Positions 39,226-59,411 of a stretch of 59,411 bases of DNA are shown here, piece by piece. The translations under genes and the position numbers were made by a program. How positions within the stretch are numbered: position 1 is the first letter of the stretch; each line of letters opens with the position of its first letter. The stretch is from assembly GCA_041666505.1 (NCBI GenBank), contig JBAYGU010000002.1, positions 1 through 59,411 of the forward strand, written 5' to 3'. Under the pieces are notes generated by a model. That model was not told the origin of the DNA, made no database searches, and saw only the letters and a program-made list of their open reading frames with translations. The stretch is from Candidatus Buchananbacteria bacterium (GTDB lineage Bacteria > Patescibacteriota > Patescibacteriia > 2-01-FULL-39-33).

Positions 39226-39234
39226 GGTGTTTTT

Positions 39235-39270
39235 CCTCCCCTTTATGAAAGGGAGGATTAAGGAGGGTTT
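39235..39270 (+). repeat. CCTCCCC hairpin repeat, copy 3 of 3
   Basis: cctcccctttatgaaagggaggattaaggagggttt lies directly after the rpsG stop. Confidence 0.7.
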
Positions 39271-39343
39271 AAATCAGTGATAAGTAATTTAATTTCCGTT
39301 CCTTGAGAATTGAAAAATCAACCAACCAAAGAGGAGAAGAGTC

Positions 39344-39625: not shown

Positions 39626-39646
39626 TTGTAATCGATTGATTTTTCC

Positions 39647-39672
39647 GAGGCGGAAGCACTCGTTTCCGCCTC
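39647..39672 (+). terminator. stem-loop after the inserted ORF
   Basis: GAGGCGGAA-gcactcg-TTCCGCCTC; a T-run follows about 12 nt later. Confidence 0.55.
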
Positions 39673-39783
39673 ATCCAATTATTTTTTTAAATTTTATATA
39701 ATTAGTTGTCGGGATGACAGCAATGCGAAATTATAATTTGACTTTATAAACCTTACAAACTTTTAACTTTATAACTAACACGT

Positions 39784-41916
39784 ATGCCCCGTAAAATTCC
39801 TATCGAAAAGATCAGAAACATCGGCATCATCGCCCATATCGACGCCGGCAAGACCACCGTTTCCGAACGCGTCTTGTTCTATACCGGAAAAAAGCATAAG
39901 ATTGGCGAAGTGCACGAAGGCGAAGCGACCATGGACTGGATGGAGCAGGAACAGGAACGCGGTATCACTATCACTTCCGCTGCGACGACTTGCTATTGGC
40001 CGAACGCCGAATGGCTGGGCGGAGGAGATATCCAGATCAACTTGATCGATACTCCCGGCCACGTCGACTTTACCGCTGAGGTAGAGCGTTCTTTGCGCGT
40101 GCTTGACGGCGGCGTCATCGTCTTTGACGGCGTTGCCGGCGTAGAGCCGCAATCCGAGACTGTCTGGCGCCAGAGCGAAAAGTATCACGTGCCGAAATTA
40201 GGATTCATCAACAAGATGGATCGCATGGGCGCGAACTTCTATAACGATTTGAAATCGATCCATGACCGCTTGACTATCCATGCCCATCCGATTCAGCTGC
40301 CAATCGGCGCCGCTGAGACTTTTTCCGGCATCATCGATCTGTTCGAAATGAAAGCGGAAATCTATCAGGATGATCTTGGCACGAAATTCGATGAAAGCGA
40401 AGTTCCAGCCGATGAAGTCGAGCGCGCCAAGAAATTCCGCGCAGAGCTTGTAGAAGCTATCGTTGAGACTGATGAAACATTGCTGGAAAGATTTTTGGCC
40501 GGAGAAGAAATTTCCGTTCCTGATCTGAAGAAAGCATTGCGCAAAGCAGTCATCGCTAACAAGATCGTGCCGATCCTTTGCGGCTCTGCTTTAAAGAACA
40601 AGGGCGTACAATTCATGCTTAACGCTGTTGCTGAATATTTGCCGTCGCCTTTGGATATTCCAGCGCCTATCGGCAAGGATGTCGATGACGAGACCAAGGA
40701 GATTACTCTCAAGGTTACCGATGAAGCGCCTTTGGCCGGCTTGGCTTTCAAGATCGCCACTGATCCGTTCGTCGGCAAATTGGTTTTTTTCCGCGTTTAT
40801 TCCGGTGTGCTTAAATCCGGTTCATATATTATCAATAATAAGAACGGCAATAAGGAGCGCGTCGGCCGCATCTTGCGCATGCATGCCAATTCCCGCGAAG
40901 AAGTTGATGAGGTTTACGCCGGAGAAATCGCCGCTTTGGTCGGCATCCGCGACGTGACCACCGGTATCACATTATCCGATCCGTCATTTCCGATCCTGTT
41001 GGAAAACATTGTGTTCCCTGATCCGGTCATCGATATCGCTATCGAGCCTAAGACTAAAGCCGATCAAGAAAAAATGGGCTTGGCTTTATCGAAATTGGCA
41101 GAAGAAGATCCGACTTTCCGCGTGCATACTGACGAGGAAACCGGTCAGACCATCATTTCCGGCATGGGCGAATTGCATTTGGATATCATCGTTGATCGCA
41201 TGAAGCGCGAATTCAAAGTGGAAGCCAATATCGGACAGCCGCAAGTCGCTTATCGCGAAACCATCAAGACCAAGGCCGAAGCCGAAGGCAAGTACATCCG
41301 CCAATCAGGCGGCCGCGGCCAATACGGTCATTGCTGGCTCCGCGTCGAGCCTTCCGAGCCGAATGCCGGCTTCGTCTTTACTGATGAAACCAAGGGCGGT
41401 TCTATTCCGAAGGAATTCATCAAGCCGATCGAAAAAGGCTCAAGAGAAGCGATGGACCGAGGCGTTCTGGCCGGCTATCATATGATCGATGTCAAAGTTA
41501 CTGTTTTCGACGGTTCCTATCATGATGTCGATTCATCCGAAGCCGCTTTCAAAATCGCCGCTTCCATGGCTTTCCAAGAAGCTTCTAGAAAAGCCGGAGC
41601 CTGCATTCTTGAACCTATCATGAAAATCGAAGTCGTCACCCCGGAGCAATTCATGGGCGATGTCATCGGTGACCTTAACTCTCGTCGCGCCATTATCGGC
41701 TCGATGGAAGACAGGGGATCGGGAGCCGCAGCTGTCAAGGTTATCAGCGCCCAAGTGCCTTTGGCCGAAATGTTTGGCTATACCACGATCATGCGTTCCA
41801 TGACTCAAGGCCGCGCCTCGAGCTCGATGGAATTCTCCAGATATATGGAAGTCCCGAAGAACGTCGAAATCAAGATTGTTGAAGCCAGAGCCGGCAAGAT
41901 GGAAAGAATCAAATAA
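39784..41916 (+). CDS. fusA: elongation factor G
   Basis: [21 protein letters not shown]; full-length at 710 aa. Confidence 0.97.
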
Positions 41917-41934
41917 TCTCTTTCAATATAAAAA

Positions 41935-41968
41935 ACATCCTCGCCTTGATCGGTGAGGATGTTTTTTT
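41935..41968 (+). terminator. fusA rho-independent terminator
   Basis: 11-bp stem acatcctcgcc / ggtgaggatgt with one G-U pair and loop ttgatc, followed by a T7 run. Confidence 0.8.
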
Positions 41969-41990
41969 ATCTCATATTCATTTGTTTTTT

Positions 41991-42040
41991 CGTCATCCTG
42001 GAATTTTTATGTAATCATAAAAATATCCGGGATCCAGGTT
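41991..42040 (+). mobile_element. solo MITE-family arm B
   Basis: cgtcatcctggaatttttatgtaatcataaaaatatccgggatccaggtt is one 50-nt arm of the family seen at 30624 and 48073. Confidence 0.7.
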
Positions 42041-42060
42041 TAATTTTAGTTTATTTTCTC

Positions 42061-42119
42061 TAATACTTTTCTTTAGAAGAAAAGTATTGCAAAAGAATCG
42101 CGCCGAAATAAATCATGGC
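42061..42119 (+). repeat. hairpin + GCAAnAGAATCGCG module, copy 1
   Basis: The hairpin aatacttttc-tttagaa-gaaaagtatt is followed by gcaaaagaatcgcgccgaaataaatcatggc. A related module lies at 59263-59342. Confidence 0.6.
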
Positions 42120-42182
42120 TAGATTTTTTATGTGATTTATTAATGGCGCAACTTCGATACAATACAAATATAAATTAAAAAC

Positions 42183-42272
42183 AAAAAAACACGGATGATG
42201 CCGTGTTGGGATTTGATTGAAAAATGATGAAAAAAATTGAGGGTCAAGCGGCTACTGCGTCGCTTGACCCTC
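42183..42272 (-). terminator. two tandem minus-strand rho-independent terminators
   Basis: The first is a 12-bp perfect stem gagggtcaagcg/cgcttgaccctc (42239-42272) followed, on the minus strand, by aattttttt. The second is the hairpin aacacgg-atgatg-ccgtgtt (42188-42207), followed on the minus strand by a T-run. Confidence 0.75.
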
Positions 42273-42982
42273 GGAACAAACAGGTGCTGCTTTCCTGACG
42301 GGCTGGCATACTATACCAGCTCCGTCTTTGCTACTTTCGCGCCCGGTGCCTCATATGGCTCCGAACGATCCTCGCGCACCCGACTGATCGGGTCGCATTT
42401 CTTCTCGTTGGTGTTTCCAGCGAGATCGCGGGAAGCCGGCCCGGAGCAGTCACGAATGACCTGCATAGCCGGCTCCCCGCACAACTTCGTTTACCAGTAC
42501 CCGTTTCCGACCAGCTTCTTCCTGCGAACACTAATCGTCGCGGTCCACCGAATCGGATAGTACTGGCTTGTTTCGCGCCGGTTCGTCTTTGGGCTAAGCC
42601 CTCGCCCGCTGAGGTAATAATTCTGCCTCAGCGGGCTACCATGAAAGAAGTCTGCTACGACCGCACATGAAGTGGGTCATGGAGGTTTTCTCCTGGTTGC
42701 GATGCGCGGGTTTTAAAGCCGCACACCTCGCCGCAGTCTCAATTTTGCCCTCTCACACGGGGCGATGTGCTACGAAAATACCGTAGCTACACAAACGCAC
42801 AACGATTGCGAATGTTATATCGCTTTCGAAGCATGCGTCTTCCTCTCCTTTCGGCATTAGTTTAGCGGCGATCAATCGGCCGTTCAACTATAGTCAGGTC
42901 GGCGAACGGCCCAAAGGCGTTCGTCCCAACTATTTACGCAGACCGCGCTATTTGTGTTACCGCGCGGTTGATGCCGTTGGAA
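42273..42982 (-). ncRNA. candidate large structured RNA or long structured 3' UTR, family unknown
   Basis: This is a GC-rich, ~700-nt stretch with no convincing ORF. It has many helices. Two contain G-U pairs only when read on the minus strand: a 13-bp helix 42428-42440/42468-42480 and a 7-bp helix at 42301-42317. A perfect 10-bp hairpin lies at 42606-42636. The stretch is bounded by the ORF stop and the terminators. Confidence 0.45.
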
Positions 42983-43333
42983 CTACACCGCAACCTGGCG
43001 TGCCACAAAAACCTTGCGGCTGAACGGGCTGCGGGTCTGCGGGTGATTCATGCGGGCGAAGTTCGCCAGCATTTCATCACGCGCGCGGTCGATCGAGTCG
43101 GGATGTTCCTCCTCGACTTCGACAGCGCTCTTCACCCGCTTTGCTGTCGACTTCTGGAATTTCACCGAGAAGCTGTGCAGCTTTTTCAGGAAATCGAGAC
43201 CGCCCAGCAGGTGGATGCCCAAATGGGCGCCGCCGCTGACGGTGATCTCGCCTTTCCCCAAGTCGATCTTGACGCCCTTCTTCTTACGGAGGGCATCAAC
43301 GACACCGCTGAGCGAATACTTCGAAATCAACAT
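42983..43333 (-). CDS. hypothetical protein with foreign (high GC3) codon usage
   Basis: 116 aa counted from the second ATG, which is preceded by agaaggaaaaagaaa. By hand count the codon positions show the coding pattern GC3 >> GC1 > GC2. Composition is K-rich and balanced. I recognise no family. Confidence 0.6.
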   Translation of the reverse strand: MLISKYSLSGVVDALRKKKGVKIDLGKGEITVSGGAHLGIHLLGGLDFLKKLHSFSVKFQKSTAKRVKSAVEVEEEHPDSIDRARDEMLANFARMNHPQTRSPFSRKVFVARQVAV

Positions 43334-43430
43334 TTTCTTTTTCCTTCTCATTTTTCAACCCGCGCCATGCGGATTGTTGTCAACGTTCTACGCTTCCCAT
43401 CGGACTTTCCGACTTTCAGCGTAATATAAC

Positions 43431-43459
43431 AGTATAGCACATGGGCAAAATTTTGTCAA
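43431..43459 (-). promoter_or_regulatory. strong sigma70-type promoter for the GC-rich minus-strand unit
   Basis: The minus strand reads TTGACA (43459-43454), a 17-nt spacer, then TATACT (43436-43431). Confidence 0.65.
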
Positions 43460-43601
43460 GTGATTTATCCCACTTAATTCCGATTAATTATCGTTATTTA
43501 TCTAAATTTAAACAAAATAAATTATTAAAAAATAGCTATTTTAATCAAAAAGTAGTTATTTTTGTATTAGTGAGGTGTAAGATATCAGTATTTATCCACA
43601 A

Positions 43602-44759
43602 CTATTCTAGCTTTAACGCCCCGGCAGTATAGTTATTACCAGAATTCCACAGCAGCCAGCCGTTGACATTATTGTCCTCGGCCGCCTTGATTTGGGCTTT
43701 TACCCGGTCTGCCGTATAAACAGCGCCTAAATTGAAGTCCTGCAGCCAGGGTCGGGATGAGCCGATGACGGGATTGCTCGAGGAAGCCATGATTGCCGCC
43801 CCTTCTTTCATTGCTTTATCTACTACGGCATAGGGGCAAAGCACCGGATTGGCGCAGCCGGCGTAGGGCGAGCGGTAATGCGACGGGTAGACCATGGGCG
43901 AGATATAGTCGAAATATCGGGCCGCATCAGGCAGAAATTGCCCGATTCCCATGTCATAACTCGGGTTTTCCGGGTGCCTCTGATATGTCAGGCCGAATAA
44001 ATCGATAGACAGGGGAATATCCAAATCAGCCAGGTCTTGGCGCAAATAGCTGTAAAAATCAGCCAATACCGCCGTTCTTTTGCTGCCGGCCGGGAAATCG
44101 TAATAGGCGATTGATTTCAGGTTGCCATCGGAGGGAAAACGGATATAATCCAGTTGCACCTCGTCAAAACCGATATCTGCCGCTTCTTTTATCTGTGCCG
44201 CCACTAATTTCCATGTTTCAGGATTAGTCATATCCAGCCAGGTTACGCCTTTATAATCCTGCCAAATGCCTCCGCCGGTATTCTTTAGCGCTACTTTAGG
44301 ATAAGTTTTGGCCGCTGTGCTGTCTTGGAAAGTGGTAATTCTGGCGATTGAATAGATATCTTTTGTTTGCAGATCAACTAAAATAGCCTGATAATCCTCG
44401 TATTTGAGCGAAACGGAGGAAAGCGGCCACTTGGCCAGCCGTTCATCGAGAGGTTTGACCATTAATTTGCCGCCCGGATCCTTAAAGTCAATAACGACGG
44501 AATTAAGTTCTGTTTTGGCGATTAGGTCGAAAAGTTTGTCTCGGCGGGCTTTTTGGCTGAAGGTATAGCCAGTCATATATATGCCTTTGACTAGAGCGGG
44601 GGTTGGAAGAGCTTTTTTGACAAAAAAAATAGTGCTGGAAGCATTCTCTGCCAGCACTTGCGGTGAAATATTGCCGTATTCAGGCCAATAATAAACAATT
44701 CCGCCGATTATTGCGGCCGATACTGCTAAAACTGCGGTTATCAGCCAAATCTTGTTCAT
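43602..44759 (-). CDS. putative glycoside hydrolase-like TIM-barrel protein (DUF4015/GHL type)
   Basis: 385 aa with an N-terminal TM/signal segment. The blocks VKGIYMTGY, NSVVIDFKD and GFDEVQLDYIRFP are as I remember for this family. Confidence 0.7.
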   Translation of the reverse strand: MNKIWLITAVLAVSAAIIGGIVYYWPEYGNISPQVLAENASSTIFFVKKALPTPALVKGIYMTGYTFSQKARRDKLFDLIAKTELNSVVIDFKDPGGKLMVKPLDERLAKWPLSSVSLKYEDYQAILVDLQTKDIYSIARITTFQDSTAAKTYPKVALKNTGGGIWQDYKGVTWLDMTNPETWKLVAAQIKEAADIGFDEVQLDYIRFPSDGNLKSIAYYDFPAGSKRTAVLADFYSYLRQDLADLDIPLSIDLFGLTYQRHPENPSYDMGIGQFLPDAARYFDYISPMVYPSHYRSPYAGCANPVLCPYAVVDKAMKEGAAIMASSSNPVIGSSRPWLQDFNLGAVYTADRVKAQIKAAEDNNVNGWLLWNSGNNYTAGALKLE

Positions 44760-44910
44760 ATTCTATTATTATGGTAATTATACCACACTTTATCCACAAC
44801 CAGCCACAATCCTTTACATTTAGCTATAATTCAATTATTATTACTAAATCAGTACAAATATTGAAATTATAAATAATTTCTTATTTTCTTAATTTCTTAA
44901 TAAACTTGAT

Positions 44911-45279
44911 ATGCCAAACTTTCAAAAATTGGTAAATTTACTCAAAAAAACAGGAGATAAGGCAGTAATTCTTGACGAAAGCGGCGAGCCGGGCTATGTC
45001 ATTATGACCGTCGCCGACTACGAAGATTTAATTTTGGGCAAATCTGGCGTCTCGGGCTTGACAGAAGTCGAACTTTTAGATAAAATAAATCGTGATATTG
45101 CAATTTGGAAAGACAACCAGGAATTAAGGGAACTCTCTGTGGATCAGTATAATTTCGCCAAGGATTTGGGAGATTATCTGCCGGAGGGAAACTTATCCAA
45201 TTTTAGCGATAATGATGGTAATAATCTGCCTAATATTATCGATGAGGATCGCTATTATTTCGAACCAGTTGAAGGCTAA
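44911..45279 (+). CDS. hypothetical protein, N-terminus Phd/YefM-like
   Basis: 122 aa. KAVILDESGEPGYVIMTVADYEDL resembles antitoxin-type N-termini, but no partner toxin gene is adjacent. Confidence 0.5.
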   Translation: MPNFQKLVNLLKKTGDKAVILDESGEPGYVIMTVADYEDLILGKSGVSGLTEVELLDKINRDIAIWKDNQELRELSVDQYNFAKDLGDYLPEGNLSNFSDNDGNNLPNIIDEDRYYFEPVEG

Positions 45280-45302
45280 TGGCTGATAATAATTGGCGGC
45301 AC

Positions 45303-45330
45303 TTGCTTTTTGTCTGTTTTGTGCTATAAT
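45303..45330 (+). promoter_or_regulatory. promoter upstream of tuf
   Basis: TTGCTT (45303-45308), a 16-nt spacer, then TGcTATAAT (-10 at 45325-45330). A leader hairpin lies at 45387-45424 (tgagttc...ccagcc-tag-ggctgg...gaactca). Confidence 0.55.
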
Positions 45331-45442
45331 GGGATAACTGTAAATGTAGTTTAATAAACAAATAATAATAAATAATAATTTAATTTTGAGTTCTGGGTAA
45401 AACCAGCCTAGGGCTGGGAACTCAATCAAAAGGAATAATACC

Positions 45443-46627
45443 ATGGCAGAACAATTCCAACGCACTAAGCCGCATGTAAACGTCGGCACAATCGGTCACG
45501 TTGACCACGGCAAAACCACTTTGACTGCGGCTATTTTGGCTACTTTGACTGCTCGCGGCTTTACAGCTCAGAGCAAATCAGTCGATCAGATCGACGCAGC
45601 TCCTTAAGAAAAAGCTCGCGGTATCACTATCGCTACAGCTCATGTAGAATATGAGACAGAAAAGAGGCACTATGCTCACGTTGACTGCCCAGGCCATGCT
45701 GATTATATCAAGAACATGATCACTGGCGCCGCTCAGATGGATGGTTCCATCTTGGTTGTTGCCGCTACTGACGGCCCGATGCCTCAGACTCGCGAACATA
45801 TCTTGCTCGCCAGACAGGTTGGCGTTCCTTACATCATCGTTTTCATCAACAAAGTTGATCAGGCTGATCCGGAAATGCTTGAATTAGTCGAAGGAGAAAT
45901 CCGCGACTTATTGACCAAGTATGAATATCCTGGCGACACTACTCCGATCATCAAGGGCTCCGCTTTGAAAGCCTTGCAGAATCCTGCAGGTCCGGACGGC
46001 GATTGCATTATGGAATTGATGAATGCCTTGGATACTTATATCCCGGAACCTCAGCGCGCTACCGATCAGCCTTTCATGATGCCTATTGAAGATGTCTTCT
46101 CAATCGAAGGACGCGGCACTGTTGTCACTGGCAGAATCGAACGCGGTATCATCAAATTGAACGAAGAAGTCGAACTTGTCGGTTTAAGGCCGACTGCTAA
46201 GACTGTAGTTACTGGTATCGAAATGTTTAACAAGAATTTGGATGAAGGCAGAGCAGGTGATAACGCAGGTTTACTCTTGCGCGGCATCAAGAAGGAAGAT
46301 GTCGAACGCGGCCAGGTTTTGGCTAAAGTCGGCTCTATCACTCCTCATGCTGAATTCGAAGCTGAAGTCTATATCTTGAGCAAGGAAGAAGGCGGACGCC
46401 ACAAACCTTTCTTCAAGGGTTACAAGCCTCAATTCTACGTCCGCACTACTGACGTAACAGGCGAGATCGAATTGCCGGAAGGATCAGAAATGGTCATGCC
46501 TGGCGATACCGTCAACCTGAAGATCAAATTGGGCAAGACTGTCGCTATCGAAGATAAGATGAAATTCACTATTCGTGAAGGCGGCCATACTGTCGGCGCC
46601 GGTGTCGTAACGAAGATCATTAAGTAA
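45443..46627 (+). CDS. tuf: elongation factor Tu, interrupted by an in-frame TAA at 45605-45607
   Basis: [27 protein letters not shown]...[13 protein letters not shown]...DCPGHADY continues in the same frame into the tracked ORF 45716..46627. The stop replaces the first Glu of the conserved [11 protein letters not shown] block (GAA to TAA). Confidence 0.85.
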
Positions 46628-46750
46628 GTTTTCATTATACTCAGCGGGGATAAGCGCGAACTTGTCTCCGCGACAGTGAAATGAAAAAACAGTCATTGCG
46701 TCTATCAAATCATAATTCTTAATCGTTAGACGGTAAGACACAAAGAATCT

Positions 46751-47086
46751 ATGGCAACTAAAACAGCAGCAGAAGGCAAATCCCATCAGCGAATCAGGAT
46801 TAAGCTTAAGGCCTACGACCACAAAATCATCGACAACTCAGCTCGCAAGATCATTGATTCTTGCCATCGCTTTGGCGTGAATGTCATCGGACCGGTGCCT
46901 TTGCCGACGGAAAAGCGCAAGTATACCGTCAACAAATCCACTTTCGTCCATAAGAATGCCAGAGATCAGTTCGAGATGAGAACGCACAAAAGATTGATAG
47001 ATATTATCGATCCGACAGCGCAGGTCGTCGACGCATTAATGGGCTTGTCTTTGCCAGCCGGTGTCAACATTGAAATAAAAATGTAA
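46751..47086 (+). CDS. rpsJ: 30S ribosomal protein S10
   Basis: [16 protein letters not shown]..., [11 protein letters not shown]. Confidence 0.97.
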
Positions 47087-47262
47087 ATTTAATAATAAAG
47101 ATTTTTTAAGAAAATAGAGAAAGATCCCGCGCCATAAAGAAGCTGATTGGGGAAAACCTCTATGAGTAGAAACGAATCTTTGAGGAATCGTATTCATTTG
47201 AACTACAACTTGATCACATAGAAGCAACGCCATATTTTTGGCGCTGCTAAATGTTATCCAAG

Positions 47263-47294
47263 CTCGGGTCATGAATGCGGACCGGAGTTTTTTT
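47263..47294 (+). terminator. terminator-like hairpin inside the rpsJ-rplC spacer
   Basis: ctcgggtc-atgaatgc-ggaccggag forms a GC-rich stem with two bulges, followed by a T7 run. Confidence 0.4.
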
Positions 47295-47323
47295 AATAGT
47301 AAATAGTAATTGTCTATATAGAT

Positions 47324-48049
47324 ATGAAGCTTATCCTAGGTAAAAAGTTAGAAATGACTCAAATCTTTCGTGAAGACGGCGCCGTTATCCCGGTTACCGC
47401 TGTTTTGGCTACTCCTAATGTCATTACGCAGATCAAATCGACTTCTGGCAAGGACGGCTATGATGCGGTGCAGATCGGCTATGGCGTAACAAAGAAGAAT
47501 GGCAAATCTAAAGCCGGGCATCTTAAGGACTTGGCCGCTGTCAGGACGATCAAAGAATTCCGAGTCGAAAAGGAAGATACTGCCAGCTTGAAACGCGGCG
47601 ACGAAGTTACTGTGTCTGTTTTTGTTCCTGGCGACGAAGTCAAAGTTACCGGAACATCGAAAGGCAAGGGTTTCCAAGGCGTCGTCAAGCGCCATAAATT
47701 CCACGGCGCGCCTAAGTCTCACGGCCATAAGGATCAGGAAAGAATGCCTGGTTCCATCGGTGCGGGCGGCGTGCAAAGGGTTTTCAAAGGCAAGAGAATG
47801 GCCGGCCATATGGGTGATGAGCAGGTTACTGTCTCCGGCCTGTCAGTCGTGGCCATTGATCCGGAAAAGAACATTCTCTATATCAAGGGCGCGATTCCCG
47901 GAGCGAGAAACGGCATGATCATGATTTACGGCAAAGGCGTAATGGAGATCAAAAAGCCGGAAGTCGTTGAGGAGGTTAAGGAAGAGGCAGTTGAGACTCC
48001 AGTTGAGGAAGTTAAAGAAGAGATAGCTGATATCGAAAATAAATTATAA
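47324..48049 (+). CDS. rplC: 50S ribosomal protein L3
   Basis: GKKLEMTQIF, KGKGFQGVVKRH; acidic C-terminal extension. Confidence 0.95.
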   Translation: MKLILGKKLEMTQIFREDGAVIPVTAVLATPNVITQIKSTSGKDGYDAVQIGYGVTKKNGKSKAGHLKDLAAVRTIKEFRVEKEDTASLKRGDEVTVSVFVPGDEVKVTGTSKGKGFQGVVKRHKFHGAPKSHGHKDQERMPGSIGAGGVQRVFKGKRMAGHMGDEQVTVSGLSVVAIDPEKNILYIKGAIPGARNGMIMIYGKGVMEIKKPEVVEEVKEEAVETPVEEVKEEIADIENKL

Positions 48050-48072
48050 TAATTATTAAATTATATCTCTCT

Positions 48073-48201
48073 CGTCATTCCAGAATTTTGATGTAATCGT
48101 CAAAATATCTGGAATCCAGGTTCGATTAGGATTAAGATTAGGATTAGGATTAACCTGGATCCCGGATATCCCAATGATTACATTGTGATTCCGGGATGAC
48201 G
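48073..48201. mobile_element. MITE-like palindromic element C (complete, two 50-nt arms)
   Basis: The left arm is cgtcattccagaattttgatgtaatcgtcaaaatatctggaatccaggtt. The centre is attagg-type hexamer repeats. The right arm aacctggatcccggatatcccaatgattacattgtgattccgggatgacg is the reverse complement of the family arm. Confidence 0.8.
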
Positions 48202-48244
48202 ATTAGAGGGTATTGAAGCATGAGTGAAAAAAAATAAAAAAGTT

Positions 48245-50264: not shown

Positions 50265-50370
50265 AAAGATACGAATATACTAATTTACTAATGATACGAA
50301 TAGGTACGAATAATTTCAGAAAAAATTCGCAGCCATTAGTATCATTCGTACAATTCGTAGATTAGTATCA
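50265..50370 (+). repeat. ribosomal-operon intergenic repeat (R1), copy 1, rplB|rpsS
   Basis: aaagatacgaatatactaat...gaat...cattagtatcattcgtacaattcgtagattagtatca. The two halves are imperfectly complementary. Confidence 0.9.
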
Positions 50371-50382
50371 TATAACTAATTT

Positions 50383-50670
50383 ATGTCTAGAAGTTTAAAA
50401 AAGGGTCCTTACGTTGATGCCAGACTGCTCCAAAAGATACAGAAGCAGCCGAAGGGATCCAAAGCCGTTATCAAAACTTGGTCCAGAAACAGCGCGATTA
50501 CTCCTGAAATGGTCGGACTTACTTTCGGCGTGCACAACGGCAAGGAGCATATTCCGGTTTTTGTCGTCGAAAACATGGTCGGCCATAAGCTAGGCGAATT
50601 CTCACCGACACGTAAATTCTACAGGCATGGCGGCAAGATGCAGAAGACTATTGAGGCAACTAAAAAATAA
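50383..50670 (+). CDS. rpsS: 30S ribosomal protein S19
   Basis: [18 protein letters not shown]. Confidence 0.97.
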
Positions 50671-50674
50671 TTTT

Positions 50675-51193
50675 ATGCAAGTTATCGCAAGAGCAAAATA
50701 TGTCAGAATGTCCCCGCGCAAGGTTCGCTTAGTCGCCAACCTGATCAAGGGCATGGAAGTGGAAAAGGCCAAATGGCAATTGTCTTTCAATAAGAAGATC
50801 GCCTCTTTGCCTCTTCTCAAAATATTGGAATCGGCCATTGCCAATGCCGTGGAAAATTTTGATTTGGACAAAAATAACCTGATGATTAAAACCGTTACGG
50901 TCAATGAAGGTCCCGCCCTGAAGCGCTGGATGCCTCGCGCTCAAGGCCGAGCCACCCCGCTGCGCAAGATGACTTGCCATGTTGAATTGACTTTGGCGGA
51001 AATAGTCGCCTCCGGCAAGACGAAAAAAATCAAGAAAACTGATGATAGCGATATAATCAAAGTCGGCAGCGCCGAATTCGATGAGTTGAAGGAGATAAAT
51101 CAGAAAGCTGATGACAAGGGAGGCAAAAAAGTCGCCGCCAGCACTAAGGGCTTTGCTAGCAGAGTCTTAAATAGAAAAACCGGAAGCAAATAA
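50675..51193 (+). CDS. rplV: 50S ribosomal protein L22
   Basis: MQVIARAKYVRMSPRKVRLV. I take the start at 50675 rather than the tracked 50627, which overlaps rpsS. The protein has a C-terminal extension. Confidence 0.93.
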   Translation: MQVIARAKYVRMSPRKVRLVANLIKGMEVEKAKWQLSFNKKIASLPLLKILESAIANAVENFDLDKNNLMIKTVTVNEGPALKRWMPRAQGRATPLRKMTCHVELTLAEIVASGKTKKIKKTDDSDIIKVGSAEFDELKEINQKADDKGGKKVAASTKGFASRVLNRKTGSK

Positions 51194-51202
51194 CATACTC
51201 AT

Positions 51203-51886
51203 ATGGGTCAAAAAGTTAACGCCAAAGCATTCAGATTGAAAATCAATAAAACCTGGGACGCCAAATGGTTTACCGAGCTTGATTTTGCCGAATATTTGAT
51301 GCAGGACATGAAAATCAAGAAATATATCCGCACAAAATTCCGCAACTTGGGCATTTCCTCCGTGGAAATAGAGCGTTCAGCTGGCAGCGTCATCGTCAAT
51401 CTTTACGCCGCCAGACCGGGCTTGATTATCGGCCGCGGCGGATCAGGAGCAGAAGATCTGAAGAAAGAGCTGAAGGATAAATTCCTTAAGGATGCCTTTT
51501 CCCGCAAGCGCGCCATCAAAAACATCAATATCAATATTATCGAAGTGGCTAATCCGAATGTGGATTCCGCCGTCTTGATACAATCCATGGCGACCGATAT
51601 CGAGAAGCGCATTCCTTTCCGCCGCGTCGTCAAACAGACGATGGGACGGGCTGAGAAGGCCGGCGCCAAAGGCGTCAAGGTTATTATTTCCGGGCGCTTG
51701 GATGGCGCAGAAATCGCCAGACGCGAATTATTCCTTTATGGCAAAGTGCCGTTGCATACCTTGCGCGCCGATATTGATTATGCTCGCGGCGTCGCTCAGA
51801 CCATTTATGGCACGATCGGCATAAAAGTCTGGATTTATAAGGGAGATATTTTTGAAGATAAGAGGAAAGAGAATATAAAAGATTAA
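51203..51886 (+). CDS. rpsC: 30S ribosomal protein S3
   Basis: MGQKVNAKAFRL, GRLDGAEIAR. Confidence 0.97.
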   Translation: MGQKVNAKAFRLKINKTWDAKWFTELDFAEYLMQDMKIKKYIRTKFRNLGISSVEIERSAGSVIVNLYAARPGLIIGRGGSGAEDLKKELKDKFLKDAFSRKRAIKNININIIEVANPNVDSAVLIQSMATDIEKRIPFRRVVKQTMGRAEKAGAKGVKVIISGRLDGAEIARRELFLYGKVPLHTLRADIDYARGVAQTIYGTIGIKVWIYKGDIFEDKRKENIKD

Positions 51887-51990
51887 TTTAAAATTTTCAA
51901 TTTAGAATTTAAAATGAATTTAAAATTTTAAATGAACAATAATGACATTTTAAACTTTAAATTTTAAATTAAAAATTGATACTACATATA
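51887..51990. repeat. AT-only palindrome-like spacer, family copy d (rpsC|rplP)
   Basis: tttaaaattttcaatttagaatttaaaatg ... cattttaaactttaaattttaaattaaaaattg. The sequence is low-complexity, so family membership is less certain. Confidence 0.5.
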
Positions 51991-51992
51991 AT

Positions 51993-52403
51993 ATGTTAAT
52001 GCCTAAAAAGTTAAAACACAGAAAACAGCATCGCCCCGATGTTCGCCACAAAGGCGCCGCAACCAAGGGTAATTACTTAAGTTTCGGCAGTTACGGCTTG
52101 AAGGCCGTAACCGGCGGCTGGGTCAAGGCCCAACAGCTTGAGTCTGCGAGGCGCGTTATCGCTAAATATATCAAACGCGGCGGCAAGACCTGGATCCGTA
52201 TTTTCCCGCATGCTGCCATTACCAACAAGGGATCGCAGAGCACTATGGGCGGCGGAAAAGGCGCTCCGGAATATTATGTGGCAGTTGTCCGGCCGGGCAC
52301 GATCATTTTTGAGATCGACGGCGTGCCGGAAGATCAGGCTAGGGAAGCCATGGAGTTGGCAGCATACAAATTGCCGGTCCAAGCTAAATTCGTAAAGAAT
52401 TAA
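51993..52403 (+). CDS. rplP: 50S ribosomal protein L16
   Basis: MLMPKKLKHRKQHR..., MGGGKGAPEYYV. Confidence 0.97.
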   Translation: MLMPKKLKHRKQHRPDVRHKGAATKGNYLSFGSYGLKAVTGGWVKAQQLESARRVIAKYIKRGGKTWIRIFPHAAITNKGSQSTMGGGKGAPEYYVAVVRPGTIIFEIDGVPEDQAREAMELAAYKLPVQAKFVKN

Positions 52404-52537
52404 AGATACAAATATACTAATGGTACGAATGATACGAATAAATACTAATAATTTCAGAAAGAATTCGTAGTCATTAGTATCATTCGTACAATTAAGTCAT
52501 TAGTATCATTCGTACAATTATTAGTAGATTAGTATCA
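52402..52537 (+). repeat. R1 repeat, copy 2, rplP|rpmC (with internal duplication)
   Basis: It starts inside the rplP stop codon (tAAAGATAC). The block cattagtatcattcgtacaatt occurs twice. Confidence 0.9.
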
Positions 52538-52548
52538 AATTATATTAT

Positions 52549-52737
52549 ATGAATATCAAGGAATTACAATTAAAGGAAATCCCGGAGCTCAATCAATTGC
52601 TTAGCGCTGCCAAGAAGCAGCTGGGTGATTTAGGTTTCAAGGTCCATCAGGGCCAGCTTAAGAGCGTCAGGGAAATTCGCGTCATCAAAAAAGATGTTAC
52701 CCGCTTAATGACGGTAATCAACAGTAAAAAGAAATAA
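52549..52737 (+). CDS. rpmC: 50S ribosomal protein L29
   Basis: 62 aa with an L29-like helical hairpin (ELQLKEIPELNQLL..., IRVIKKDVTRL). Confidence 0.9.
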   Translation: MNIKELQLKEIPELNQLLSAAKKQLGDLGFKVHQGQLKSVREIRVIKKDVTRLMTVINSKKK

Positions 52738-52744
52738 TTATCAT

Positions 52745-52978
52745 ATGGAAAAGAAATTCAGAAAATTCAAGGGCACGGTCGTTTCCGATAAAATGGATAA
52801 GACTATCGTCGTCAAAGTCGAATCATTCAAGACGCACCCGAAATTGAAGAAGCGTTATCGCGTCGACAAGAAATACAAAGTCCATGATGAAAAGGGCCAG
52901 TATAAGATCGATGATGTCGTTGATTTCGTAGAGTGCCGGCCATTATCCAAAGATAAAAAATGGAGAGTTATTTACTAA
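52745..52978 (+). CDS. rpsQ: 30S ribosomal protein S17
   Basis: [31 protein letters not shown]. Confidence 0.95.
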
Positions 52979-52982
52979 ACAT

Positions 52983-53351
52983 ATGCTTCAACTAAGATCA
53001 ATCGTAAAATCAGCAGATAATACCGGAGCCAAGAGGCTTGCAGTCTTTAATGTGTCCGGCGGCTTTAAGAAACGCTATGGCCGCATCGGCGATATCGTTA
53101 CTTTGTCCGTCAAGGAAGCTGCGCCTCATTCCCAGGTCAAAAAAGGCGATGTAGTCAAGGGCGTAGTCGTTCGCACCCGGAAAGAAACCAGGCGCGCCGA
53201 CGGTTCTTACATCCGCTTTGATGATAATGCCGTCGTTCTGATCGACGCTAAAAAAGAAATGCGCGGCACCCGTATCTTCGGGCCTGTCGCCAGGGAATTA
53301 AGGAATCTGGGCTATCAAAAAATTATTTCTTTGGCGCCGGAAGTACTATAA
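52983..53351 (+). CDS. rplN: 50S ribosomal protein L14
   Basis: [27 protein letters not shown]. Confidence 0.97.
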
Positions 53352-53352
53352 T

Positions 53353-53458
53353 AAAGATACGAATATACTAATTTACTAATGATACGAATAAATACTAATA
53401 ATTTCAGAAAGAATTCGCAGCCATTAGTATCATTCGTACAATTCGTAGATTAGTATCA
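53353..53458 (+). repeat. R1 repeat, copy 3, rplN|rplX
   Basis: Nearly identical to copy 1. Confidence 0.9.
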
Positions 53459-53469
53459 ATAATAATTAT

Positions 53470-53772
53470 ATGAAAATCAAAACAGGAGACAAAGTAATAA
53501 TGCTTGCCGGCAAGAATAAAGGTAAAACCGGCAAAGTGCTGCAGGTGATGACGCCAGACAAGGTGGTCATTGAGGGTTTGAATTTGCTGATCAAGCATCA
53601 GAAAGCCAGAAAAGGCGGCGAGAAGGGCCAGCGGATCCAGTTTCCGGCAGCCGTGCCTGTTTCTAAGGTTGCCTTAGTCTGCCCGAAGTGCGGCAAGGCC
53701 GCTCGTGTCGGCTTCAAGATCGAGGGTGATGCCAAATCAAGGATGTGCAAGAAGTGTTCAGAAACAATCTAA
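53470..53772 (+). CDS. rplX: 50S ribosomal protein L24
   Basis: MKIKTGDKVIMLAGKNKGKTGKVL; a CxxC...CxxC zinc-ribbon-like tail. Confidence 0.95.
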   Translation: MKIKTGDKVIMLAGKNKGKTGKVLQVMTPDKVVIEGLNLLIKHQKARKGGEKGQRIQFPAAVPVSKVALVCPKCGKAARVGFKIEGDAKSRMCKKCSETI

Positions 53773-53779
53773 TTATAAT

Positions 53780-54328
53780 ATGGAATCAAGATTACATAAA
53801 AAATACCAGAAAGAGGTCGTACCGGCTTTAAAAGAAAAATTCGGCTATAAGAACATCATGTCTGTGCCGAAAATTCTTAAGGTCACTATTAACGTCGGCA
53901 TAAATTCCAGAAATACCGATAGCGGTCTTCTCGATAATGTCGAAAACAACTTGCGCCGCATTACCGGCCAGAAACCAGTCCGCACCAAATCGCGAGCGGC
54001 TATCTCGGCCTTCAAGGTGAAGGAGAATATGGTAGTAGGTGTTGTTGTTACCTTAAGAGGCCAGAAGATGTACGACTTTTTGGACAAGCTGATAAATATT
54101 TCGTTGCCTCGTATCCGCGATTTTCGCGGCGTCTCGGCTGGAAATATCGATCAGCAAGGCAATATGTCGATCGGTTTCAAAGAGCATGTGGTGTTTCCTG
54201 AAATCCGCTCCGACGAAGTCGAACGGATACATGGCATGCAAGTGAATATCACGACCAATTCGAAAAGCCATGAAGAAGGAGAAGAATTGTTCCGCTTGCT
54301 GGGATTCCCGATGCAGAAAAAATCATAA
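53780..54328 (+). CDS. rplE: 50S ribosomal protein L5
   Basis: MESRLHKKYQKEVVPALKEKFGYKN. The ATG at 53780 is preferred over the tracked 53705, which overlaps rplX. Confidence 0.95.
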   Translation: MESRLHKKYQKEVVPALKEKFGYKNIMSVPKILKVTINVGINSRNTDSGLLDNVENNLRRITGQKPVRTKSRAAISAFKVKENMVVGVVVTLRGQKMYDFLDKLINISLPRIRDFRGVSAGNIDQQGNMSIGFKEHVVFPEIRSDEVERIHGMQVNITTNSKSHEEGEELFRLLGFPMQKKS

Positions 54329-54346
54329 TTGGATAACAATCAATAT

Positions 54347-54532
54347 ATGGCTACCGAAGCTCAAATCGCTAAATCAAAAAGAAAACCGAAATTTTCTACC
54401 CGAAAGGTCAATCGCTGCTGGCGCTGCGGACGCAGGCACGGCTACATGCGGGATTTTAAGTTGTGCCGCATTTGTTTCCGTGAACTTGCCACTGGCGGCC
54501 AGATTCCGGGCATCACTAAATCATCTTGGTAA
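54347..54532 (+). CDS. rpsN: 30S ribosomal protein S14 type Z
   Basis: 61 aa, [23 protein letters not shown]. The ATG at 54347 is preferred over the tracked TTG at 54329. Confidence 0.93.
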
Positions 54533-54543
54533 ATAAATAAAAT

Positions 54544-54945
54544 ATGACAGATCCTATAGCAGACATGCTGACAAGAATCAGAAATGGCGCCAAAGCCAAA
54601 AAAGAAAAGGTATATTTGCCTTTCTCTAAATTGAAATTGGAATTGGCGAAAATCCTCAAACGCGAGGGGTACATTTCTGACATCATCGAAATCCAACCGG
54701 GCACCGAAGGATTCAAATTCGGCGGGCTTGAGATTGTCTTGAAATACGACGGCAAGACGCCTGTCATTTCCGGCATCAACAGGATTTCCAAATCAGGCCA
54801 GCGCCAGTATGTGAAGAAGGATGAGCTGCCAGTCGTTTTGAATAACTACGGCATTTCCATCTTATCCACCTCTCAAGGCTTAATGAGCAATAAGCAAGCG
54901 AAGAAGCTGGGTCTCGGCGGCGAAGTCTTGTGCGAAGTCTACTAA
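54544..54945 (+). CDS. rpsH: 30S ribosomal protein S8
   Basis: MTDPIADMLTRIRN, GGEVLCEVY. Confidence 0.97.
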   Translation: MTDPIADMLTRIRNGAKAKKEKVYLPFSKLKLELAKILKREGYISDIIEIQPGTEGFKFGGLEIVLKYDGKTPVISGINRISKSGQRQYVKKDELPVVLNNYGISILSTSQGLMSNKQAKKLGLGGEVLCEVY

Positions 54946-54955
54946 TACCACACAT

Positions 54956-55501
54956 ATGTCTAGAATCGGAAAAAATCCCATCACTATACCGAGCGGCGTC
55001 GAAGTCACATTGACTGGCGATGTCGTCGAGGTTAAAGGTCCTAAAGGAAGCTTGAAGGAAAAGCTGCATCCTTTGGTTAGCGCTGAGTTGAAAGACGGCA
55101 CGCTCCAAGTCAAGATCAAAGACGAGGAAAACAAATCGCAGCGCGCTTTGTGGGGTCTTTTCGGCAGCTTGATCAGGAATATGATCACTGGCGTGACAAT
55201 CGGTTTTTCCAAGCAATTGGAGATCAACGGCGTCGGCATGAAGTATGCGGTCAGCGGCAACAAAGTCAATTTGAATGTCGGTTTTTCCCATCCGGTTGAA
55301 TTCGCCATACCCGCAGGCATCACAATTGCCGTAGAAGCCAACATCATGACTATTTCCGGCATCGATAAACAGCTCGTCGGCGAAACAGCCGCGCAGATCC
55401 GCCGCATCAAGAAGGTTGAGCCGTATAAAGGCAAGGGCATCAGATATGTCGGTGAGAAATTCATTAAGAAGGCCGGCAAGGCCGCAGGCAAAGGCAAATA
55501 A
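54956..55501 (+). CDS. rplF: 50S ribosomal protein L6
   Basis: MSRIGKNPITIPSGVEV, EPYKGKGIRY. Confidence 0.97.
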   Translation: MSRIGKNPITIPSGVEVTLTGDVVEVKGPKGSLKEKLHPLVSAELKDGTLQVKIKDEENKSQRALWGLFGSLIRNMITGVTIGFSKQLEINGVGMKYAVSGNKVNLNVGFSHPVEFAIPAGITIAVEANIMTISGIDKQLVGETAAQIRRIKKVEPYKGKGIRYVGEKFIKKAGKAAGKGK

Positions 55502-55504
55502 CCA

Positions 55505-55611
55505 AAAGATACGAATATACTAATAATACTAATGATACGAATGAATACTAATAAATTAAGAAAGAATTCGTACCTATTAGTATCATTCGTACAATTCGTA
55601 GATTAGTATCA
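55505..55611 (+). repeat. R1 repeat, copy 4, rplF|rplR
   Basis: Same ends as the other copies. The central variant is aaattaagaaagaattcgtacc. Confidence 0.9.
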
Positions 55612-55620
55612 TTAAACTAT

Positions 55621-55974
55621 ATGAATAGAATACAATCAAAAATCCAAAGAGTCGAAAGGCGCGCCAAGCGCGTCAGAGTGAAGATTTCCGGCACAGCCTC
55701 CAAGCCTCGCCTGTCTGTTTATCGCAGTTTGAGCCATATTTACGCTCAATTGATCAATGATGAGAAGGGCTTGACTCTTGCCAGCGCTAAAGATACTGAA
55801 GTTAAAGCCGGCAAGACGAAGACGGAAAAAGCGTTCGAGGTCGGCAAGCTTTTAGCCGAAAGATCCAAGGCTGCCAAGATCAGCGAGGCAGTCTTTGACC
55901 GCGGATCATTCAAGTATCATGGCCGCGTCAAGGCCGTTGCTGAAGGCGCTCGCGAAGGCGGAATAAAGATTTAA
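55621..55974 (+). CDS. rplR: 50S ribosomal protein L18
   Basis: [36 protein letters not shown]. Confidence 0.97.
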
Positions 55975-55982
55975 TTACACAT

Positions 55983-56549
55983 ATGCCAAAAGATTTTAAA
56001 GAACGTGATAAAAAAGATTCAAAGAGGCGCGGTCCAAGGCCGCAGCGCGAAAAGCCTGAATTCGATCAGAGCATAGTTGAAATTGCCCGCGTTACCCGTG
56101 TCATGGCTGGCGGTAAAAGAATGAGCTCCCGCGCTTGCGTCGTAATCGGCGACAGGAAAGGCCGTGTCGGCATGGGTCTGGCCAAAGCCAAGGATGTGCC
56201 GATGGCAGTGCAGAAAGCCGTCCATCAGGCAGAAAAGGCTCTCATCAAGATCAATATGCGCGAGGGTACGATCACTCACTCGGTCCATGTAAAATACGGC
56301 GCAGCTAAGATCATGTTAAAACCGGCTCCTGTCGGTACTGGTATTATTTCCGGCGGCGCTGTCCGGACGGTCTTGGAATTGGCCGGCATCGAGAATATCG
56401 TTTCTAAGATCCTTGGCACCAATAACAAAATCAATAATGTGCGCGCCGCTTTGATGGCCTTGTCTCAATTGAAGAAAAACAAGTACGGCGATAAGAAAAA
56501 GGCTAAAGATGAGGCGAAAGAGGTTATTGCTCATATTAGCGAAGAATAA
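55983..56549 (+). CDS. rpsE: 30S ribosomal protein S5
   Basis: RVTRVMAGGKRMSSRACVVIGD, GTGIISGGAVR. Confidence 0.97.
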   Translation: MPKDFKERDKKDSKRRGPRPQREKPEFDQSIVEIARVTRVMAGGKRMSSRACVVIGDRKGRVGMGLAKAKDVPMAVQKAVHQAEKALIKINMREGTITHSVHVKYGAAKIMLKPAPVGTGIISGGAVRTVLELAGIENIVSKILGTNNKINNVRAALMALSQLKKNKYGDKKKAKDEAKEVIAHISEE

Positions 56550-56551
56550 TA

Positions 56552-56658
56552 AAAGATACGAATATACTAATAATACTAATGATACGAATGGATACTAATA
56601 AATTAAGAAAGAATTCGTATTCATTCGTATCATTCGTACAATTCGTAGATTAGTATCA
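56552..56658 (+). repeat. R1 repeat, copy 5, rpsE|rplO (position where rpmD normally sits)
   Basis: Closest to copy 4. It ends 13 nt before the rplO ATG. Confidence 0.9.
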
Positions 56659-57106: not shown

Positions 57107-57116
57107 CATCTGATAA

Positions 57117-57200
57117 AAGTTTTTAGTTTTAAGTTTGCAGTTTTAAGATTATAATTCAGGTTCGTCATTAACTACAAACTAAAAACTACAAACTAAAAAC
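57117..57200. repeat. palindromic spacer rplO|secY
   Basis: The left arm agtttttagttttaagtttgcagtt is complementary to the right arm aactacaaactaaaaactacaaactaaaaact. The loop contains caggttcgtcatt. Confidence 0.6.
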
Positions 57201-57206
57201 TATTTT

Positions 57207-59216: not shown

Positions 59217-59249
59217 CCGAGGCGCCGTATTGGCCGCCTCGGTTTTTTT
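59217..59249 (+). terminator. adk rho-independent terminator
   Basis: CCGAGGCG-ccgtattggc-CGCCTCGG followed by a T7 run. Confidence 0.8.
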
Positions 59250-59262
59250 AATAATATTTCTT

Positions 59263-59342
59263 TAATACTTTTCTTTAGATTATTTTATTTCCACTTCTTT
59301 AGAAGAAGTGGAGCAAGAATCGCGACCGGTCGAAATCATGGC
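59263..59342 (+). repeat. hairpin + GCAAGAATCGCG module, copy 2
   Basis: taatacttttctttaga..., then the hairpin ccacttc-tttagaa-gaagtgg, then gcaagaatcgcgaccggtcgaaatcatggcc. It parallels 42061-42119. Confidence 0.6.
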
Positions 59343-59411
59343 CAAATTTATTTATCCGTCTCGCCAAATTTTCTGACGTCGGATTACCTCCTTGCGAAAA
59401 TTTGTTGCTCG

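Follow-up and report, generated by a model that had tools for sequence, protein, structure and literature searches.

Copies of a palindromic heptamer-array element fill five spacers of the S10/spc ribosomal-protein operon in a Buchananbacteria genome

Few bacterial gene clusters are as compact and conserved as the S10/spc ribosomal-protein operon, and the genomes of Patescibacteria are small and streamlined; rapidly changing hairpins at the junctions between its genes are therefore unexpected. Such hairpins are present in a stretch of 59,411 nucleotides from a Candidatus Buchananbacteria bacterium (assembly GCA_041666505.1, contig JBAYGU010000002.1, positions 1 to 59,411 of the forward strand; hereafter the window), in which an imperfect palindrome of ~106 nt, built from TAC(G/T)AAT units, occupies five spacers of this operon, always on the plus strand. 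A sequence-only reading of the same DNA had drawn attention to these elements and offered several explanations, among them RNA processing sites, translational or regulatory hairpins, a protein-binding array and an operon-specific miniature inverted-repeat transposable element (MITE). What kind of element enters the junctions of so conserved an operon, and by what route? The answer leaned towards here, with limited confidence, is that the five elements are a non-coding, non-autonomous foldback repeat of MITE/REPIN-like type, which is copied as DNA, quickly gained and lost, and able to move between lineages.

The operon extends over 49.4-58.5 kb of the window on the plus strand, in the order rplB, rpsS, rplV, rpsC, rplP, rpmC, rpsQ, rplN, rplX, rplE, rpsN, rpsH, rplF, rplR, rpsE, rplO, secY and adk; no rpmD is found within this interval. 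The five same-strand copies (Table 1) lie exactly where they had been described, as a repeat search of the window, a hidden Markov model (HMM) built from the copies and a covariance model all agree. The repeat search groups them as one 5-member family, and the HMM scores them at E = 1e-29 to 1e-31. Neither the HMM nor the covariance model detects a sixth copy in the window, in keeping with the earlier observation that none lies outside a 6.4-kb stretch, nor in the 4 kb past its end that are available from a second same-species assembly. In total, ~63.5 kb of the source genome were covered, with all five copies within 6.4 kb, while other genomes were seen as 8-kb pieces. Those copies that are covered by two other assemblies of the same species (ENA ERZ27249449 k141_854330 and JGI 3300037810) match the window without any difference, while a few coding positions set the window apart from both public records. 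The window corresponds, in reverse complement, to nearly all of the ENA contig (59,447 bp), and named homologues of its ribosomal protein L6 place the organism in Candidatus Buchananbacteria.

Pairwise identity among the copies is 89-96% and their flanks are unrelated to one another, which indicates recent duplication. All 10 copy pairs align better in the same orientation, and the closest pairs, copies 1 and 3 (102/106 positions) and copies 4 and 5 (102/107), are those that had been singled out as nearly identical. In this species, copying at the DNA level has placed the element in five short, mutually unrelated spacers of a single operon.

Each copy is built as had been proposed, with 4-5 TAC[GT]AAT heptamers in the left arm and 4-7 ATT[CA]GTA heptamers in the right arm, spaced 8-10 nt apart, so that a unit comprises a conserved 7-nt core and a linker of 1-3 nt. 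The rest of the window holds only 10 and 6 scattered occurrences of the two heptamers, which is the background level, and the invariant 17-mers of the family give 9 and 12 matches, all within the five elements, where shuffled sequences would lead to an expectation of 0.19 and 0.12. With a length of 106-136 nt, a G+C content of 24-28%, a position wholly within spacers and no open reading frame (ORF), the elements have the size and composition of a MITE; the extra length of copy 2 is due to a 26-nt tandem duplication in its right arm, where the same 22-mer occurs at 52472-52493 and 52498-52519. Their ends, AAAGATAC and GTATC(A or TTT), and arms complementary over ~40 positions correspond to the terminal inverted repeats of such elements. 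AT richness, intergenic location and the capacity to form stem-loops are general properties of prokaryotic MITEs (PMC10969869), and the elements agree with all of them.

Measured from the last base of the upstream stop codon, the starts of the elements range from 2 nt before it to 5 nt after it, and the terminal GTATCA lies 9-13 nt upstream of the next ATG. These distances, as well as the overlap of copy 2 with a TAA, stand as previously given. The fixed phasing to stop and start codons had been considered unusual, but it follows trivially from insertion, because the empty spacers are only 4-30 nt long.

Table 1. Copies of the TACGAAT element, further hairpins in the window's operon, and homologues found in other genomes. 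Coordinates are positions in the window; L numbers denote loci in other genomes.
Feature	Coordinates	Strand	Location	Hairpin (kcal/mol; z)	Remarks
Copy 1	50265..50370	+	rplB–rpsS spacer	-25.8; -4.9	start 5 nt past TAA, end 12 nt before ATG
Copy 2	52402..52537	+	rplP–rpmC spacer	-37.5; -6.8	2-nt overlap with rplP TAA, end 11 nt before ATG
Copy 3	53353..53458	+	rplN–rplX spacer	-26.2; -5.6	start 1 nt past TAA, end 11 nt before ATG
Copy 4	55505..55611	+	rplF–rplR spacer	-27.7; -6.1	start 3 nt past TAA, end 9 nt before ATG
Copy 5	56552..56658	+	rpsE–rplO spacer	-33.4; -7.2	start 2 nt past TAA, end 13 nt before ATG
Hairpin, different family	51887..51992	+	rpsC–rplP spacer		TTTAAAAT units; same architecture
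Hairpin, different family	57107..57206	+	rplO–secY spacer		AAACTA units; same architecture
GC-containing nested palindrome	48050..48244	+	rplC–rplD spacer	-64.5	TCGTCATTCCAGAAT...ATTCCGGGATGACGA, with GATTAG repeats
L006, full-length homologue			pilC–pilin spacer		Buchananbacteria
L010, full-length homologue			immediately upstream of serS		Saccharibacteria
L016, full-length homologue			between unrelated genes		Saccharibacteria
L002, two full-length copies			S8–L6 and L6–L18 spacers		Nomurabacteria
L014, one-arm remnant			abuts nusG start codon		
L004, one-arm remnant			abuts atpC start codon		arm is the entire 21-nt atpD–atpC spacer
L015, one-arm remnant			near start of unknown gene		
L001, one-arm remnant			after dnaB		
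L013, one-arm remnant			upstream of pyrG		

Folding of the copies shows how far they can be regarded as RNA structures. Each forms an imperfect hairpin of ~40 bp with a free energy of -26 to -37.5 kcal/mol (z = -4.9 to -7.2), and the reverse strand folds as well as the mRNA strand, the antisense being slightly better in 4 of the 5 copies. The same comparison over 46 expanded spacers of six operons favours the antisense strand in 30 cases and the sense strand in 16 (Wilcoxon p = 0.003, with spacers that are not mutually independent). The mRNA strand shows no sign of selection for folding. The regularly spaced mismatches of the stem, described in the sequence-only reading as G/T swaps, are instead G·A and U·C in the full-length register, in which the centre of most unit pairs is mismatched; in the consensus fold and in the minimum-energy folds of copies 1, 3 and 4, the register is shifted by one unit and most units pair perfectly. 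A systematic central G/T mismatch as a designed feature was consequently rejected as largely an effect of register.

Searches for known signals in the elements gave little. Rfam yields no match at gathering score in the whole window, including ribosomal-protein leaders, and a terminator scan of the window places no terminator-like site inside any copy. Promoter-like matches show no enrichment, with 29 observed and 21 ± 4 expected; a weak TTCGCA-N17-TACAAT match is present in copies 1 and 3 and missing from the others. The absence of a Shine-Dalgarno (SD) sequence at the five downstream genes had also been pointed out; SD-like motifs are indeed rare, but these genes are not special in this respect, as a motif that even loosely resembles an SD sequence accompanies only ~7 of the window's 53 starts. 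The anti-SD motif is often absent in Parcubacteria, and the scarcity of SD motifs in the window fits this reported loss (PMC9297842).

The orthologous operon of nine related Buchananbacteria-type genomes, 71-91% identical to the window in ribosomal protein L5 or L6, offers a comparison with sites that the element does not occupy. By L5, the identity to the window is 76% for L017 and 71% for L018; by L6, it is 91% for L097, the closest relative, 87% for L099, 80% for L117, 79% for L100, and 78% for both L118 and L119. The TACGAAT family has no copy in any of the nine operons (by the HMM for L017-L100, or by the covariance model), not even in L118, which derives from the same sample as the window. 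The orthologous junctions are either compact (2-39 nt) or occupied by unrelated hairpin families, a presence/absence pattern typical of MITEs. The five junctions measure 2-21 nt in L018 and, where no other element intervenes, 2-10 nt in L017 and 9-28 nt in L100. The operon of L018 is compact throughout, with spacers of up to 39 nt, and those of L100 and L117 are nearly so.

Junction occupancy among the related genomes ranges from 0/19 to 11/12, with 15/19 junctions expanded in L097 and 11/12 in L099, and the occupied junctions differ from genome to genome. The inserts share one architecture, in which arms of 3-5 tandem units of 7-10 nt are followed by a loop and the inverted units, while their sequences are unrelated to the TACGAAT family, and each genome has its own dominant hairpin family. 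In L097, a CCAAGATACAA-type family occupies eight spacers (six full-length and two shorter copies), and L099 contains six copies of a GCTTGTAGC family, the orientation of both dominant families being uniform as well. Still other families are found in L017, L117, L118 and L119, including GC-containing TCATCCCG...CGGGATGA types. The L6–L18 junction exemplifies this turnover, as it contains the TACGAAT element in the window, a GCTGGTAGC family in L097 and L099, a GC type in L100 and merely 10 nt in L017 and L018. The S17–L14 and S14–S8 junctions have identical compact spacers in the window and L097; the two are therefore close relatives, yet they have no TACGAAT copy in common. At the five junctions, the spacers of the window and the occupants in L097 show at most marginal similarity (z ≤ 2.0), and orthology between them was rejected on this ground. 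No partial intermediates are seen at these junctions in the relatives. Many hairpin families of this architecture, unrelated to one another in sequence, turn over fast in the ribosomal-protein operons of Buchananbacteria, and the TACGAAT family is one of them.

Three of these further families occur inside the window's own operon (Table 1), and others elsewhere in the window. The S3–L16 (rpsC–rplP) spacer is the only expanded spacer of the window that is detectably similar to the occupant of the same junction in L097 (z = 4.8), and a 104-142-nt element is found at this junction in four genomes. In L119, the hairpin of the same spacer (4974-5110) has a left arm of four exact tandem ATTACGG units, a clear case of unit amplification within an arm. 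For the TACGAAT family, the covariation that the sequence-only reading had recommended looking for is seen: across four genomes, 94% of cells in the arms pair and both partners have changed in 5 pairs, a degree that 5/500 shuffles attain; it does not discriminate, however, because it is equally expected from a DNA inverted repeat.

Relatives of the TACGAAT family itself are found much farther away. An exact search with the first 20 nt of the element, using one genome per species, gave 16 matches, 10 of which are in Patescibacteria or Patescibacteria-like metagenome-assembled genomes. The matches L003, L007, L008, L009, L011 and L012 lie in coding DNA of other phyla with no adjoining heptamer array and are clear chance matches; L005, from Dojkabacteria, also lacks an array and looks like chance. 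The remaining loci contain full-length homologues or one-arm remnants (Table 1). An arm in Nomurabacteria is identical to that of copies 1 and 3 at 37/37 nt, only 20 of which had served in the search. About half of these loci have the conserved arm in the sense direction of the gene next to it, and the others have it in the antisense direction. The canonical ends of the element, as seen in other genomes, are AAAGATAC...GTATCTTT, with an A-tract and a T-tract enclosing the hairpin. An opposite orientation of the two Nomurabacteria copies, suggested by HMM scores, was dropped when the covariance model scored both strands almost equally. Two pattern scans of viral contigs revealed no element, their matches being chance ones in coding DNA.

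The MITE option is thus the best fit among those proposed at the outset, although the idea of an operon-specific element with a strong target preference holds only in this genome. The mechanism envisaged for such a repeat is as follows. Copying would depend on a transposase or recombinase that acts in trans and recognises the iterated heptamers, much as some transposon ends carry several subterminal binding sites, and spread would be local within the operon, hence the preserved orientation. The copies would be co-transcribed with the operon and fold into an imperfect hairpin of ~40 bp with the stop codon and the following start at its base, separated by ~10-20 nt of unpaired flank, and sequential translation could continue past the hairpin in a largely SD-less organism. 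Insertions in an essential operon would be tolerated because the folded transcript keeps the stop and the next start close. Any effects on mRNA processing or stability would be secondary.

Several observations weigh against a mobile repeat. Among the 29 Pfam-scanned ORFs of the window upstream of the operon, which comprise housekeeping genes, large surface proteins and ORFs without a Pfam match, there is no transposase, RAYT (Y1_Tnp), integrase or Nop-domain gene, and the portions read of 16 genome loci and 10 viral loci, on which no transposase scan was made, show no autonomous element that shares the ends of the repeat. No consistent target-site duplication accompanies the copies: AT-rich flank matches of 4-7 nt occur at copies 2, 3 and 5 and matches of 3 nt at copy 1 and L016, nothing is found at copy 4, L006 or L010, and the matches have no common length or sequence. 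No strain-level insertion polymorphism appears among the available near-identical contigs. The five copies are confined to 6.4 kb in a single orientation, and a classical cut-or-copy transposon would not obviously produce such clustering, or uniform orientation in three families. Occupancy of up to 90% of the junctions is unexpected for purely selfish DNA in streamlined genomes, and arms made entirely of short units are unlike those of a plain MITE.

Some of these features would be accounted for if the elements were selected as intercistronic RNA hairpins. Any stable hairpin between stop and start would then serve, whether as an RNase III-type site, as a 3'-end stabiliser or in upstream-ribosome-dependent initiation without an SD sequence, with its sequence free to vary and homogenised per genome. 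The large share of junctions occupied in L097 and L099, the uniform within-operon orientation of three different families and the position of the hairpin end, always ~9-17 nt upstream of the ATG, agree with such a role, as do the recurrence of the S3–L16 element in four genomes with detectable similarity between the window and L097, the arm complementarity kept across four genomes, and right-arm-only versions of other families just upstream of the first-in-operon genes rpsL and fusA. The frequent absence of the anti-SD motif in Parcubacteria (PMC9297842) and the rarity of SD-like motifs in the window point the same way. Nevertheless, selection of this kind is judged unlikely: the same gene order works with 2-39-nt spacers throughout in L018 and nearly so in L100, the occupied junctions vary between genomes, folding is poorer for the sense strand than for the antisense, about half of the other loci have the conserved arm running antisense to the gene beside it, and a DNA inverted repeat predicts the same arm covariation. 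Most of the outcomes that were to count against the functional operon-RNA interpretation of the sequence-only reading are observed, namely no conservation at orthologous junctions, occupation of unrelated sites elsewhere and both orientations across genomes. A conserved cis-regulatory RNA of the S10/spc operon is not supported, given its absence in relatives, its mixed orientation elsewhere and a sense strand that is not the better folder.

An origin in place, without a dedicated enzyme, is less probable again. It would require slippage to multiply a spacer motif, fold-back (template-switch) copying to generate the inverted arm, and gene conversion, or recombination with DNA taken up from outside, to spread the hairpins between nearby AT-rich spacers and homogenise them. 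The fresh 26-nt tandem duplication of a multi-unit block in copy 2, the construction of all families from arrays of 7-10-nt units with several possible pairing registers, unit sequences peculiar to each genome, and the local clustering of copies in one orientation are what such a process would leave; in addition, the compact L5–S14 spacer of the window resembles the units of the L097 family, as judged by eye, and ComEC is encoded in the window. Copies that are 89-96% identical between unrelated flanks, however, require copy-and-paste with precise ends, the identical 37-nt arm in Nomurabacteria is hard to explain by independent origin, and the relatives show no partial intermediates at the five junctions. 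It is more improbable still that a host protein, for instance a regulator or a nucleoid-associated protein, binds the heptamer arrays as DNA, with the palindrome as a by-product of symmetric site arrays. In favour of this, the heptamer core is kept even where its partner does not pair with it, distant classes share the arm whichever way it faces the genes, and the units follow a regular spacing of 8-10 bp. Against it, no candidate protein is known, close relatives have entirely different units at the same places, heptamers are at chance level outside the elements, and promoter-like matches are not in excess. That the elements are intrinsic terminators or attenuators, or else a guide-RNA array of TIGR/CRISPR type, is hardly credible and is contradicted by their anatomy. 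The ends seen elsewhere do form an A-tract and a T-tract flanking a hairpin, and arrays of tandem interspaced guide RNA (TIGR) have been reported in Buchananbacteria (PMC12045711); yet the stems are AU-rich and mismatched, no terminator-like site falls within the elements and the window copies end in GTATCA without a T-run, and, as regards a guide array, the period is 8-10 nt and the near-identical copies have no variable spacers and no Nop-domain gene among the Pfam-scanned ORFs. A mobile foldback repeat therefore remains the reading adopted here.

Other repeats of the window deserve mention. A GC-containing nested-palindrome family (TCGTCATCCCGGAAT...ATTCCGGGATGACGA) is present at 30623-30730, 41990-42045 and 48070-48215, and this type is common to ribosomal-protein spacers of L017, L100 and L118. 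AT-rich unit-hairpins with TTTTAAT units occur at 865-987, 2908-3031, 37270-37400 and 51887-51992, in spacers that include lepB–hisS, rpsU–yqeY and the region upstream of an M50 peptidase gene. Further unit arrays lie at 35970-36006, 38274-38304, 39740-39770 and 57107-57206, and right-arm-only arrays with AAACTA or ACTTTTA units are found directly upstream of the starts of rpsL, fusA and another gene, which hints at a likeness between right arms and native 5' leaders.

A conserved intergenic element of ~190 nt lies at 42044-42236 and 59246-59411 of the window, as well as in the secY–adk spacers of L097, L017, L117 and L118. It consists of a perfect hairpin (AATACTTTTCTTTAGAAGAAAAGTATT) followed by GCGCGCC...AAATCATGGC...GGCGCAAC and recurs in relatives at 76-91% protein identity. 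Its first copy (42044-42236) has no Rfam match, and the element is perhaps the gene of a small RNA or else a promoter module. Downstream of fusA, a G+C-rich spacer of 407 nt (42561-42967) has a predicted fold of -157 kcal/mol; Rfam at E ≤ 0.1 (41800-47400) gives no match and the spacer contains no Pfam-annotated ORF, so it may represent an undescribed structured RNA or a missed gene. The long rpsG-fusA gap of 558 nt (39226-39783) contains a doubtful minus-strand ORF of 112 aa and a strong GC hairpin (GAGGCGGAAGC...GTTTCCGCCTC).

Among the coding regions, ORFs of 3601 and 1064 aa (6811-17616 and 3535-6729) have cysteine-rich repeats (CGNG...EACD) and an N-terminus resembling type IV secretion system pilins, features typical of large surface proteins. 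The tuf gene (45443-46627) has an in-frame TAA at 45605-45607, where a conserved Glu is expected in EF-Tu. Scattered coding substitutions separate the window from the public source contig at 46966, 51076, 51998, 53833, 53857 and 56128, and the TAA is therefore more likely a point change than recoding or a pseudogene.

The five elements of the window gain importance from what their existence implies. Either an unrecognised mobile-element system circulates among uncultured bacteria, or these organisms express polycistronic mRNAs in an unusual manner without SD sites, and proof that the hairpins have been co-opted for polycistronic expression would raise their interest. A broader proposal, attractive but doubtful, is that Parcubacteria-group Patescibacteria carry an undescribed class of foldback repeats with arms of 7-10-nt units, which is exchanged between distant classes and has been co-opted or selected as intercistronic hairpins for translation or processing in largely SD-less organisms. 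If true, co-option would explain why up to 90% of ribosomal-protein junctions are occupied, always in a single orientation. At a practical level, repeats of this kind cause assemblies to break and gene calls to shift, and they provide strain markers. For these organisms, the ribosomal-protein block is the standard phylogenetic marker region.

Comparison with known repeat systems helps to place the element. Integron attC sites, such as the Vibrio VCRs, are imperfect palindromes of ~60-140 bp that follow each of a series of co-oriented genes, form species-specific families and conserve structure over sequence. The host genes here, in contrast, are core ribosomal-protein genes in conserved order rather than cassettes, no integrase is encoded in the Pfam-scanned ORFs, and the element ends contain no GTTRRRY core sites, as judged by eye. 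TIGR arrays are likewise short-repeat arrays in Patescibacteria, Buchananbacteria included, but they have a 36-nt period, two alternating repeats of 8-12 nt, variable 9-nt spacers and an adjacent Tas gene (PMC12045711); the period of 8-10 nt, the near-identical copies without variable spacers and the lack of a Nop-domain gene in the scanned ORFs set the present elements apart. Nor do they resemble intrinsic terminators, which combine a short G+C-rich stem with a T-run, whereas these have AU-rich stems and GTATCA ends. The searchable literature contained nothing relevant on such repeats in Patescibacteria.

In architecture, the closest match is offered by eukaryotic foldback (FB) transposons, in which long inverted arms are arrays of short tandem subrepeats, although these are elements of kilobase scale, some with internal genes, and no homology is implied. 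Correia elements (CREE/NEMIS) of Neisseria are AT-rich inverted repeats of ~100-150 bp that often lie between co-transcribed genes, form mRNA hairpins, vary in presence between strains and affect expression through RNase III and promoters (PMC2649163, PMC10969869). They have features of their own, namely terminal inverted repeats of ~26 bp around a core, a TA target duplication, an IHF site and hundreds of dispersed copies in both orientations within one genus. In the present element, by comparison, the whole arm is a heptamer array, there is no consistent duplication, the five copies are clustered in the same orientation, and no sequence similarity to Correia elements is seen. REPINs, inverted doublets of repetitive extragenic palindromic (REP) sequences that are mobilised by REP-associated tyrosine transposases (RAYTs), are non-coding, extragenic imperfect palindromes of ~100 nt that often lie in operons and constitute species-specific families, which vary from one relative to another (PMC3116915, PMC3686654). 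Their REP unit of 20-40 nt has a GTAG or CGTC head (PMC3733652) and is tied to a RAYT gene, whereas the present elements have the ends AAAGATAC and GTATCA without either head and arms that are tandem heptamer arrays. With no head motif, and no Y1/RAYT gene in the Pfam-scanned part of the window, membership in the REP/REPIN-RAYT system was rejected. Chunjie, a MITE found in Geobacter uraniireducens, provides a reported precedent for insertion into an operon without destruction of the operon structure (PMC10969869). It measures 178-235 bp, has conserved inverted and direct repeats, is dispersed over the genome and is not composed of short-unit arrays. In functional terms, Correia/NEMIS elements, REPINs and this operon-inserted MITE are the closest known systems.

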